A stretch of DNA of 64,000 nucleotides from a bacterium (GTDB lineage: Bacteria > CAYTYR01 > UBA6262 > DAOVJB01): NCBI GenBank assembly GCA_043821115.1, contig JBDRDD010000007.1:6276-70275 (forward strand), in the 5' to 3' direction. Position 1 is the first letter of the stretch; each line of letters starts with the position of its first letter. The position numbers were made by a program, and so were the translations under genes. Under the pieces are notes generated by a model. The model saw only the letters and a program-made list of their open reading frames with translations, was not told the DNA's origin and ran no database searches. Shown here in pieces: positions 47,395 to 50,506 of the stretch.

Positions 47395-49524
47395 ATGAGC
47401 AAGCGAAAAAGTATCATAGGGGTATTATTCTTTTTCCTTATACTGCTTTTTTTTGGAACCCCGCTCACCTATGGTGCACCTTTACCTCCCACAAGCCTAA
47501 CAGCCACAAACAACGGTGGTCCCATATCACTCTCATGGACCGCCGCAGTCGGCGCAACTTCCTACACAGTTTACAGAAGTACCCTTACAATTACCGCACT
47601 TACCGATGAGGGAGTAGAGGTGGCTGGTGTCAGCACATCTACGACATTCATGGATATAAATACGGAGGATACAATAACGTATCGCTACGTGACTACCGCG
47701 TGGGATGCCACGGGGGAAAGTGCCACATTTTCAAACGAGGCCATAGTTACGGCTTTCTATGTAACCCTTACTGTAAGTCTCAGTGCCGACACCCAGCTCA
47801 TAGATTACGAGACTAACGGTACTCCGGCACAGTCTGTTATAACATATACTGTGGACAGCGGTTATCTTGCTCAAAGTATAGCGATAGATATTATAGACAA
47901 CTACAGTGATTCGAGTATATTCAAGGAACCCGTTGTCGTCAACTCCGCTACAGGTATCAGTTCAGGTAACTATACGTGGGACGGCAGCTGGTTCAATACC
48001 ATGCAGCCTACCAAGCATAACGGCTCATATACAGTCCAGGTTACACCTACCGGTTTTGACGGCATGTCACCTGAATATCCCACGCAACTCACAATTACAG
48101 TCCACGTTGTTCACGTAAATGACGTGGAGATGATATTTACAGATTATGGGCAGACCACTATAGCACATGGTCTCCCCATGCTTTTTTCATACCAGCTTAC
48201 CGAGGATGCATATACTACCCTTGCAATTTACAATACCAATGGAACCAGTTCTACGGCTGACGACACGCTTGTAAAGAGCTTCACAGATGAGGCTCCGAGA
48301 AACAGCGAAGGACAGACCAGGGATTTCAGAGAACACCAGTCCTGGGATGGCACTTATGGAGGACCAGAAGATGGTATAAGTGCAAGTCTTCAATACAAAC
48401 TTGTTCCTACAGGCATATACAGGTTTGCCATAGACGCTTATTTTGATCACACGGGTTTAGCTACCAGGGATATAGCCACGACACGAGGATGGTCTTTCGC
48501 GGTTGATAAGAGAATAGTTGATATAAGTACGGAAGGAATTAGTGAGAATAATCCGCTAGCAAAGATAAAATATACTCCGACAGAACCGGCTAACGTGACC
48601 ATAAAGATATGTAAGTCCGGAACTACGTTCTCAACAGATGTCACTACCGGCGAGGCAATACCGAATCCATCCACGAATCTTGTAAAGACGTTTACTTTTT
48701 ACCAGCAGGCAGCAGGGGAGCAGGAAGTTACATGGGACGGCAATGACGAGAACGGTACTGCCTCGGATGACGGGCTCTACCTGGTGGTCATCACTGCAAC
48801 TGATGTTGAAGGCAACCTCTTCTTTAACACCAGCGGTACAGACAATCTTTTTAGAACCACCGTATCAATAGACAGGACCACGAGCCAGATAGCGACGGAT
48901 TCAACCGCTCCCACTGTCAGTTCTACAAGTCCATCAAGCGGGAGTGTTGTTACAAGTCCTTTTACGCAGGTAAGCGCCGTACTGGCTGATGAGAGCGGCG
49001 GCTCCGGAGTGGATCTTGACAATTCCACCATTTCACTTACTGATCCAAGTTCAAACGCCGTGTCCGGTACGACAACAAACAACGGAACAGATACCCTTAT
49101 CCTTACAGTTGCCTCACAGTCAACGGACGGGGTTTATACGATAAAGGTAGTACCAAAAGATAATACGGGTAATACGGGAAGCGATCATACGGCAACATTT
49201 ACACTTAACGTTACCACTACGAGCGAACAGACGACATTCCAGGAAACCGTGTATGTTTATCCTAATCCCGCAAAGAGCGGTCAGGCGACTTTCGCCTATA
49301 CGCTCAGCCGCGCGTCTAATGTTAAGCTTGAGGTTTACAGCTTGATGGGAGAGCTTGTCTATTCGTCTTCCAAGGATGACGTAAGCGGGGACAGGACATG
49401 GGTGTGGAACTGCAAGAATGACGGCGGAGGCGATGTTGCTACCGGGCTGTACCTTTACAAGCTGACTGTAAAGGAAGGCTCAAACACTTATGAGACAACG
49501 AAGAAACTGATTATAGTGCGTTAA
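47395..49524 (+). CDS. Large surface protein (FN3 plus Ig/FlgD-like repeats) with T9SS-type C-terminal sorting domain
   Basis: Signal peptide; FN3 (PPTSLTATNNGGPISLSWTAAVGATSYTVYRS); internal WDG...GLY repeats; tail VYVYPNPAKSGQATFAY...GLYLYKLTV...KKLIIVR. Confidence 0.88.
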   Translation: MSKRKSIIGVLFFFLILLFFGTPLTYGAPLPPTSLTATNNGGPISLSWTAAVGATSYTVYRSTLTITALTDEGVEVAGVSTSTTFMDINTEDTITYRYVTTAWDATGESATFSNEAIVTAFYVTLTVSLSADTQLIDYETNGTPAQSVITYTVDSGYLAQSIAIDIIDNYSDSSIFKEPVVVNSATGISSGNYTWDGSWFNTMQPTKHNGSYTVQVTPTGFDGMSPEYPTQLTITVHVVHVNDVEMIFTDYGQTTIAHGLPMLFSYQLTEDAYTTLAIYNTNGTSSTADDTLVKSFTDEAPRNSEGQTRDFREHQSWDGTYGGPEDGISASLQYKLVPTGIYRFAIDAYFDHTGLATRDIATTRGWSFAVDKRIVDISTEGISENNPLAKIKYTPTEPANVTIKICKSGTTFSTDVTTGEAIPNPSTNLVKTFTFYQQAAGEQEVTWDGNDENGTASDDGLYLVVITATDVEGNLFFNTSGTDNLFRTTVSIDRTTSQIATDSTAPTVSSTSPSSGSVVTSPFTQVSAVLADESGGSGVDLDNSTISLTDPSSNAVSGTTTNNGTDTLILTVASQSTDGVYTIKVVPKDNTGNTGSDHTATFTLNVTTTSEQTTFQETVYVYPNPAKSGQATFAYTLSRASNVKLEVYSLMGELVYSSSKDDVSGDRTWVWNCKNDGGGDVATGLYLYKLTVKEGSNTYETTKKLIIVR

Positions 49525-49549
49525 TATATTAATTGTAGAAGGGATTCAA

Positions 49550-50506
49550 ATGAGGGTTGTTCAGTTGAGATATATTTCGATTATTTGGCTTAGCATCTTC
49601 TTGGCAAGTGTTGCGTTTGCCGGGAGCTCTTCTGATGTTGGCACAAGCACAGCGTCTTTTTTGAAGCTGGGTGCCGGGGCCAGGGTTATCGGTATGGGCG
49701 GTGCGTTTGTCGCTGTTGCCGATGATGCCAACGCCACCTACTGGAATCCAGCGGGTATGACACAGATATATAGTCCCGAGATAGCGGCTACGCATAACCA
49801 GTGGTTTGAGGATATAAGAAGCGAATATGTAAGCTACGTCCATCCTCTGCCCGATAAAATGGGTGTTGCCGGTGCGGATTTTCTATACATGAGTGTTCCA
49901 AGCATAGAGAAGAGGGATTCCTCTGGCGACAAGGCCGGAACCGCCAAGGTTAACAGTATGTCCTATGCCGTGCTCTATGCCTATCCCGTGAGTCCAAGAT
50001 TTTCCGCAGGAATAAAGCTCAAAGGTATTTTCCAGGAATTCGATGATGAAAAAGGTAACGGTATGGCTGCGGATTGCGGACTTCTCTTTGTGCAGCCAGT
50101 TCTGGAGAGGGAAAAGGTGTCATTTGGTGTGAACGTGCAGAACCTGGGGCCGAAGTTAAAGACAGGCTCGACAGATGAGGACCTGCCTCTTAATATAAAG
50201 GGCGGAATAGCTTTTATATCTGTTGATAAAGGCCTTATCATAGCAGTGGATATTGACCAACCCGTTGATAACAAGATGAAATTTCATTCAGGGGTGGAGT
50301 ACTGGTTCAGGAAGCTTGTTGCTCTGAGGGTAGGTTACGAGGATGTCGGAGATATCGGTGCCGGGAGTGGTTTTACTTTCGGTTGCGGTTTCAAGGGGTA
50401 TGAGTCGGAGGAGTTCAGCAACGTGCTGATAGGTTTTGATTACGCTCTTGCGTCCTTTGGCGATTTTGGATACACTCACCGTTTTTCCCTCGCCGTTAAG
50501 TTCTAA
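49550..50506 (+). CDS. FadL/PorV-like outer-membrane beta-barrel
   Basis: Signal peptide; LGAGARVIGMGGAFVAVADDANATYWNPAGM; C-terminal strand THRFSLAVKF. Confidence 0.82.
   Translation: MRVVQLRYISIIWLSIFLASVAFAGSSSDVGTSTASFLKLGAGARVIGMGGAFVAVADDANATYWNPAGMTQIYSPEIAATHNQWFEDIRSEYVSYVHPLPDKMGVAGADFLYMSVPSIEKRDSSGDKAGTAKVNSMSYAVLYAYPVSPRFSAGIKLKGIFQEFDDEKGNGMAADCGLLFVQPVLEREKVSFGVNVQNLGPKLKTGSTDEDLPLNIKGGIAFISVDKGLIIAVDIDQPVDNKMKFHSGVEYWFRKLVALRVGYEDVGDIGAGSGFTFGCGFKGYESEEFSNVLIGFDYALASFGDFGYTHRFSLAVKF

Follow-up and report, generated by a model that had tools for sequence, protein, structure and literature searches.

A surface-protein and PorV-like barrel gene pair at a conserved position between coaBC and priA in an Elusimicrobia-labelled lineage

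Two neighbouring genes at 47395-50506 of a 64,000-nucleotide stretch of bacterial DNA (assembly GCA_043821115.1, contig JBDRDD010000007.1, positions 6,276 to 70,275; the whole stretch is called the window below) code for a predicted secreted protein with a C-terminal sorting domain (CTD), here cargo3, and for a predicted outer-membrane barrel of the PorV/PorQ family, here barrel3. They follow remA-gmk-rpoZ-coaC-coaB and precede the genes for a family-4 uracil-DNA glycosylase (UDG) and PriA. A preliminary description of this DNA had taken the pair for an accessory module inserted into a core operon. We consider it likely instead that the two genes are a lineage-conserved, vertically inherited unit consisting of a CTD surface protein and its dedicated PorV/PorQ-family barrel. 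As judged from gene order and divergence, the pair has long been fixed in the lineage; it is no accessory module of recent insertion.

Gene order, divergence and composition at the locus

To place the pair we compared five relatives: the contigs L039, L128 and L129, the assembly GCA_017973895.1 (contigs L124 and L043) and a contig of JGI 3300075153. Two of them carry the label Elusimicrobia or Elusimicrobiota. The order cargo-barrel-UDG-priA occurs at the same position in 5/5 relatives, with PriA identities to the window down to 32%, and gmk-rpoZ-coaBC lies directly upstream of the pair in three of the five. The preliminary description had called for a synteny comparison around gmk-rpoZ-coaBC-priA and had named beforehand, as the sign of an ancestral arrangement, that related genomes all carry the same genes here with unchanged composition; the pair was indeed found fixed at this spot in every relative examined, and by that standard the reading as an inserted or dispersing module is refuted. 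L039, which is conspecific with the 'Elusimicrobiota bacterium' metagenome-assembled genome (MAG) GCA_030673425.1 and has a 23S gene 94.2% identical to that of the window, is collinear with it from the 3' end of the 16S gene through 23S, 5S and remA to priA and the Cu-oxidase_4 and DUF4416 genes, with 69% identity for the cargo and 67% for the barrel; from coaC to priA the two form a single collinear 5.5-kb DNA alignment of 66% identity. In GCA_017973895.1 the two contigs share an exact 55-nt overlap that joins them into cargo-barrel-UDG-priA-DUF4416; on L124 the cargo C-terminus is 73% and the barrel 61% identical to the window, and on L043 DUF4416 is full-length and the Cu-oxidase_4-like match only a short remnant. 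The JGI contig (PriA 44%) shows a partial open reading frame (ORF) followed by barrel-UDG-priA-Cu-oxidase_4-DUF4416, so that this end of the block is kept both there and in L039. L128 ('Elusimicrobia bacterium' GCA_016218565.1) and L129 (a 282-kb contig) read gmk, an rpoZ-sized ORF, then coaBC-cargo-barrel-UDG-priA, and L129 continues past priA with def-fmt.

These last two contigs are the two whose contexts we examined among eight further full-length orthologues recovered in a search with cargo3 (53-55% identity in that search, 56-57% in the family alignment). At this deepest comparison the identities to the window are 53% for the cargo, 51-52% for coaC, 49-50% for coaB, 46% for the UDG, 45-49% for gmk, 40-41% for the barrel and 32-33% for priA. 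The best-conserved gene of the block is thus the cargo, and the divergence of the pair is equal to or below that of its housekeeping neighbours, which does not fit the label accessory. The nine members of the cargo3 family align with a mean column identity of 74% and share long invariant motifs, a conservation that on the alignment is uncommonly high for a secreted Ig-repeat protein. KLVPxGIYRFAIDA and NLVKTFTF are among the motifs invariant in the window protein and P0242-P0250.

The ORF map and the Pfam and NCBIfam scans gave the following genes, all in one orientation:

45077-45328, + strand, remA-like gene (PF04025, E 4.2e-33; 95% identity to the L039 orthologue)
45309-45914, + strand, gmk, guanylate kinase (PF00625, E 8e-48)
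45868-46134, + strand, rpoZ, RNA polymerase omega (PF01192, Rpb6/omega, E 8e-7)
46143-46694, + strand, coaC, phosphopantothenoylcysteine decarboxylase, in an ORF of its own (PF02441, Flavoprotein, E 4.5e-34; stop TAA at 46692-46694)
46688-47335, + strand, coaB, with an ATG at 46793 (DFP Pfam model, E 1.8e-51; TIGR00521 positions 182-392 matched by 46694-47335)
47319-47348, + strand, sigma-70-type promoter-like site (TTGACA and extended -10 TGATAGTAT)
47395-49524, + strand, cargo3, 709 amino acids (aa) (Pfam FlgD_ig twice, Big_13 and Por_Secre_tail; TIGR04183)
49550-50506, + strand, barrel3, 318 aa, PorV/UPF0164/FadL-like (NF033709, 196.7 bits)
50543-51262, + strand, family-4 UDG (PF03167; TIGR00758, 186 bits, cutoff 125)
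51283-53301, + strand, priA (PriA_3primeBD, PriA_C, Zn_ribbon_PriA)
53310-54050, + strand, Cu-oxidase_4 family gene (Pfam scan)
54059-54604, + strand, DUF4416 gene, last of the conserved block (Pfam)

All genes named in the preliminary description are present at the coordinates it gave and on this strand. Its interval 47395-50506 holds the cargo and the barrel; the UDG, which its text counted with them, falls outside. A complete rRNA operon (16S, tRNA-Ile, tRNA-Ala, 23S, 5S) lies upstream, with remA 27 nt past its end, and this junction is also kept in L039 (window 39680-45328; L039 1-4414). Over 1-64000 practically all credible genes, as well as the rRNA operon, are on the + strand.

Unlike the single coaBC that the block name in the preliminary description suggests, coaC and coaB lie in two separate reading frames in a -1 relation. 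The same -1 offset is present in L039, and in L128 and L129 CoaBC is fused (392-393 aa). The coaB frame is open from about 46685 and has no ATG, GTG or TTG upstream of the ATG at 46793, a start that would delete the conserved nucleotide-binding motif VLVTAGPTRE..DPVRFISN. ATT 46688 or ATA 46691, with GAGGT upstream, could be the coaB start. The coaC frame of L039 (5790-5830) reads AG A_AAA_AAG ACC TGA, a dnaX-type -1 slippery heptamer at which a -1 slip enters the CoaB frame. A programmed frameshift, translational coupling and an assembly indel are all possibilities for the offset.

The composition of the pair is native to the window. GC is 0.470 for cargo3 and 0.483 for barrel3 (window 0.447 +/- 0.025), GC at third codon positions (GC3) 0.463 and 0.511 (0.465 +/- 0.062) and codon-usage chi2 per codon 0.061 and 0.181 (0.136 +/- 0.059), all within 1.5 standard deviations of the window genes. 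The preliminary description had noticed neither flanking direct repeats nor a recombinase, and the scans agree: direct and inverted repeats flanking the pair are only short, of low identity and not beyond chance, and Pfam detected no integrase, transposase or recombinase domain in the neighbouring genes. A candidate repeat spanning coaB to priA (D1, 37 nt, 73%) was dismissed as a chance match. No tRNA lies at the borders, the closest ones being found some 6 kb upstream in the rRNA operon. The marks of a mobile islet, namely border repeats, an integrase or a tRNA, deviant composition and patchy presence (here 5/5 relatives), were not found at this locus.

Gene order outside the lineage is part of the case for an insertion. 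The Bacillus subtilis ylzA...priA region is one that we take to be ordered remA-gmk-rpoZ-coaBC-priA-def-fmt. Our scan of genome contigs with PriA returned mainly Bacillota that are only distantly related, besides a single short contig of Elusimicrobiota. In Bacillota, remA and/or gmk closely precedes priA at about two thirds of 36 loci; L031 reads gmk-coaC-coaB-priA with nothing between, and L024 has remA-gmk-coaC-coaB followed by priA about 1.3 kb downstream. The lineage studied here resembles this order in the sequence and orientation of remA, gmk, rpoZ, coaC/coaB and priA and, in L129, in priA-def-fmt. It differs in having cargo, barrel and UDG between coaB and priA, a split coaBC (in the window and L039) and an rRNA operon before remA. 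The conserved block on which the preliminary description relied thus holds for Bacillota loci, whereas the nearest other lineages have no coaBC before UDG-priA. In the contigs L125-L127 the order is MGDG synthase-UDG-priA-fmt or glycosyltransferases-UDG-(PilZ)-priA-fmt, and none of coaBC, cargo or barrel lies upstream of UDG-priA. A Spirochaetota MAG, L002, also holds a UDG directly upstream of priA. From these comparisons UDG-priA is the deeper conserved pair, and cargo-barrel lies where two blocks meet; the 'interruption' of an ancestral coaBC-priA arrangement is therefore itself an assumption. An insertion of the pair into the core operon, whether horizontal or by duplication and dispersal within the genome, could draw on the Bacillota orders, on L129 and on the homologous pairs described below. 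Against it stand the fixed position in all relatives down to 32% PriA identity, a cargo that is the most conserved member of the block, and the native composition and featureless borders, and we regard it as improbable. Such an insertion could only be ancient, and the pair would therefore be core and not accessory. In our preferred reading of vertical inheritance, the pair would have taken its place between coaBC and UDG-priA a single time, in a remote ancestor of the Elusimicrobia-labelled clade, and would have been core since.

The cargo and barrel proteins and their possible export

Cargo3 has an N-terminal signal peptide, tandem beta-sandwich (FN3/Ig-like) domains and, at its extreme C-terminus (residues 621-707 of 709), the sorting domain. 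The latter is type-A-like, with 34.4 bits to TIGR04183 (cutoff 23) and 33 bits to PF18962 (cutoff 27). A Pfam match to CHU_C (type B) overlaps the CTD and is weaker at 29.9 bits, and the NCBIfam scan gave no match of cargo3 to the type-B model TIGR04131. The putative Sec signal peptide, MSKRKSIIGVLFFFLILLFFGTPLTYG/AP, was recognised by inspection only. The AlphaFold2 (AF2) model of cargo3 is all-beta with a mean pLDDT of 67; its confident parts are the N-terminal FN3-like domain, the second sandwich, the Big_13-like domain and the CTD, and the centre of the protein (residues ~240-500), its most conserved stretch, is modelled poorly. Foldseek with this model returned generic multi-Ig proteins only (TM 0.12-0.17) and was uninformative.

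Barrel3 carries a signal peptide and matches the PorV/PorQ family model NF033709 with 196.7 bits (cutoff 90), compared with 201.3 for barrel2 and 136.3 for barrel1, the two other barrels of the window. It is a member of the family and an orthologue of neither PorV nor PorQ, because it falls far under both equivalog cutoffs (NF033710, PorV, 89 bits against 250; NF033711, PorQ, 96.7 against 220). The PorP/SprF model TIGR03519 had no match on barrel3 in the NCBIfam scan. The AF2 model is a closed beta-barrel of about 14-15 strands (pLDDT 73.9, pTM 0.72) whose top Foldseek matches are the PorV chains 8gl6_F and 6h3i_F (E 1e-11 to 1e-10, TM 0.62-0.65). FadL and TodX come next among the structural matches. 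Together with a weak Pfam match to Toluene_X/FadL, they would allow barrel3 to be a transporter of the FadL type for hydrophobic compounds, without relation to the CTD protein and beside it only by coincidence. This we judge very improbable: the Toluene_X match of 22 bits is under its cutoff and compares with 197 bits for NF033709, PorV gives the best folds and the sole match of the barrel3 family profile to a PDB sequence (E 1.5e-22), and CTD genes are about 7-fold enriched immediately upstream of such barrels, as described below.

A candidate translocon of a type IX secretion system (T9SS) lies at the start of the window:

1-4524, + strand, SprA/Sov-like ORF, C-terminal part of at least 1507 aa, clipped by the window start (TIGR04189, E 2.8e-46)

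Its reading frame runs open from the first base of the window. There was no PDB sequence match and no Pfam match above the curated cutoff (a weak DUF2460, E 9e-4). By its similarity to TIGR04189 this ORF is a candidate for a divergent SprA-like protein outside Bacteroidota. Our literature search found, among the papers it covered, no description of a T9SS in Elusimicrobia/Elusimicrobiota or of PorV paralogues beside type-A cargo. We propose that cargo3 would be exported by Sec and its CTD recognised at the SprA-like translocon, where the cargo would cross the outer membrane. The CTD could then be bound by the neighbouring barrel3, acting as shuttle and/or surface anchor in parallel to PorP/SprF with type-B CTDs.

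The promoter-like site is situated at the 3' end of coaB, directly upstream of cargo3, and consists of a -35 TTGACA at 47319, an 18-nt spacer and the extended -10 TGATAGTAT. L039 (TGATAATAT) and L128/L129 (TGTTAAAAA) keep the two elements in the same register, which gives over the four genomes the consensus TTGACA, 17-18 nt, extended -10 TGnTAnnAn, and the site is kept in L128/L129 although the proteins there share only about 50% identity with those of the window. The intergenic gaps from coaB to priA measure 59, 25, 36 and 20 nt, and a scan of these gaps found no terminator-like site. Transcription from the conserved promoter probably runs through cargo3 and barrel3 into UDG-priA. One possibility may be that cargo, barrel, UDG and priA are a single regulated operon with products acting in a common process. 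The order and tight spacing kept over deep divergence, the conserved promoter before the cargo and the uninterrupted passage to priA agree with this idea, as does the observation that the UDG-priA of the outgroups also follows envelope genes (MGDG synthase, glycosyltransferases). There is, however, no known biochemical link between a secreted Ig-repeat protein or an outer-membrane barrel and base-excision repair or replication restart; UDG or priA was near the barrel in 0/80 metagenomic loci; and co-transcription without shared function is common in compact genomes. A common process thus has in our view a low probability, and we return to cargo and barrel as the unit.

Recurrence of the pair

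The pair at 47395-50506 is the third of three such cassettes in the window, the other two being:

6933-8765, + strand, cassette 1, barrel1, fusion of a PorV/PorQ-family barrel with a TPR region (29% identity to barrel3)
8762-10096, + strand, cassette 1, cargo with Kelch propeller and CTD (Pfam/NCBIfam)
31265-33613, + strand, cassette 2, cargo2 with NHL propeller, fn3 and CTD (Pfam/NCBIfam)
33623-34612, + strand, cassette 2, PorV/PorQ-family barrel2 (31% identity to barrel3)

Cassette 1 does lie between argS and a cyclase gene (adenylate cyclase), as the preliminary description had it; its order is reversed, the barrel preceding the cargo with a 4-nt overlap. The TPR region of barrel1 is C-terminal and about 300 aa long, an architecture also found in P0083 and P0094. 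The three barrels are mutually 29-31% identical and the three cargos share only the CTD of about 85 aa (29-34%); any duplication of the cassettes is therefore ancient. Barrels 1 and 2 are nearer to barrels of other genomes (33-36%), among these barrel+TPR fusions like barrel1. The proposal of a module duplicated and dispersed as a unit stands insofar as cargo and barrel are a recurrent two-gene unit, while the copies in the window are ancient paralogues. The occurrence of three pairs in 64 kb, and of a homologous pair (cargo 33% over 521 aa, barrel 45%) in an unrelated neighbourhood on the contig L041, would suit an insertion by dispersal; the low identity of the paralogous barrels, each nearer to those of other genomes, speaks against it.

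The surroundings of cassette 2 stand out in other ways. The region 29300-39300 has a GC3 of 0.31-0.39 (mean 0.465) and is compositionally more deviant than cassette 3; it holds two pilin-like N_methyl genes, cargo2, barrel2, a TPR gene and a gene for a 1302-aa GH113/PKD protein. Shortly after the end of barrel2, and ahead of the TPR and the 1302-aa GH113-like genes, comes a c-di-GMP-I-GGC riboswitch (65 bits) at 34698-34782. The window also codes for three GGDEF proteins and many sensor kinases.

To see how far the pairing extends we scanned metagenomes with the barrel profile and obtained 80 loci, the best match at 42% and thus no close relatives. For 65 of the barrels the sequence reached 300 nt or more upstream; 28 of these had a CTD-ending ORF immediately upstream and six had one downstream, compared with a background of 5.8% among non-adjacent genes. 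From this recurrence the CTD cargo with its PorV-like barrel is a real and widespread evolutionary unit, of which cassette 3 is an old fixed instance.

Several observations weigh against this picture. The relatives sampled are only five, and in two of them a contig end cuts the region upstream of the cargo. In L125-L127, whose PriA is equally or more similar to that of the window (39-40%), UDG-priA has neither the pair nor coaBC upstream, and therefore a gain or rearrangement happened at some depth. The tetranucleotide distance of cassette 3 from the window mean, a figure that favours insertion, ranks within the top 3% for windows of its size; it probably comes from the Thr/Ser/Gly-rich cargo3 protein, because synonymous usage is normal. 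The correlation of barrel-barrel and CTD-CTD distances over 35 pairs (Mantel r 0.60, reached by 0/5000 permutations; barrel1 was represented by its TPR tail and that row is disregarded) speaks for cargo and barrel as a unit, but plain orthology accounts for part of it, the distant pairs giving only r 0.24. The SprA-like ORF scores 157.5 bits, under the curated TIGR04189 cutoff of 200, and no further T9SS core gene was found within the 64-kb window. Binding of cargo by barrel, secretion and co-transcription are predictions.

Taken together, the locus carries little weight as an anomaly of synteny: the arrangement is old and fixed and does not testify to a mobile secretion cassette. It matters more as clear genomic evidence that CTD-cargo/PorV-like barrel pairs are widespread outside Bacteroidota, and the very high conservation of cargo3 singles it out, in this uncultured lineage, as a candidate for a core protein of the surface or envelope. 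We tentatively speculate, rating it clearly below the vertical inheritance of the pair, that a T9SS-like pathway of this lineage may give each cargo one private PorV-like barrel even for type-A-like CTDs, a one-to-one scheme not known in Bacteroidota beyond type-B CTDs with PorP/SprF. Cargo3-barrel3 would then be a core envelope component and not an adhesin-like accessory, more conserved than CoaBC, Gmk, UDG and PriA, with its own deeply conserved promoter and a fixed position by UDG-priA.

Comparison with known systems

The closest analogue is given by the pairs of type-B CTD proteins with PorP/SprF in the T9SS of Bacteroidota, such as SprB-SprF, studied in Flavobacterium johnsoniae (PMC12618676, PMC9143113). 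There too a gene for a CTD surface protein adjoins that of a dedicated outer-membrane barrel, several pairs with unrelated passenger domains occur per genome, and the barrel is proposed to recognise its partner specifically and to anchor it at the surface. Only the adjacency is common to both at the level of families: here the CTD fits TIGR04183 and not TIGR04131, the barrel NF033709 and not TIGR03519, and the host is of an Elusimicrobia-labelled lineage, not of Bacteroidota.

The second comparison is with PorV (LptO) of Flavobacterium johnsoniae and Porphyromonas gingivalis, the general shuttle of type-A CTDs (PDB 6H3I, 8GL6; PMC5562754). Barrel3 shares with it the FadL-like fold and the NCBIfam subfamily model, and PorV is both its best structural and its only PDB sequence match. 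Unlike PorV, barrel3 reaches only 89 bits against the 250-bit equivalog cutoff, is shorter (318 aa, against 402 aa for the PorV chain) and has at least two paralogues within the same 64 kb, each of the barrels beside one cargo. All type-A CTDs of Bacteroidota are reportedly recognised by a single PorV shuttle (PMC12618676). The new element here is the pairing of type-A-like CTDs with dedicated PorV/PorQ-family barrels, where current T9SS models give all type-A substrates one PorV.

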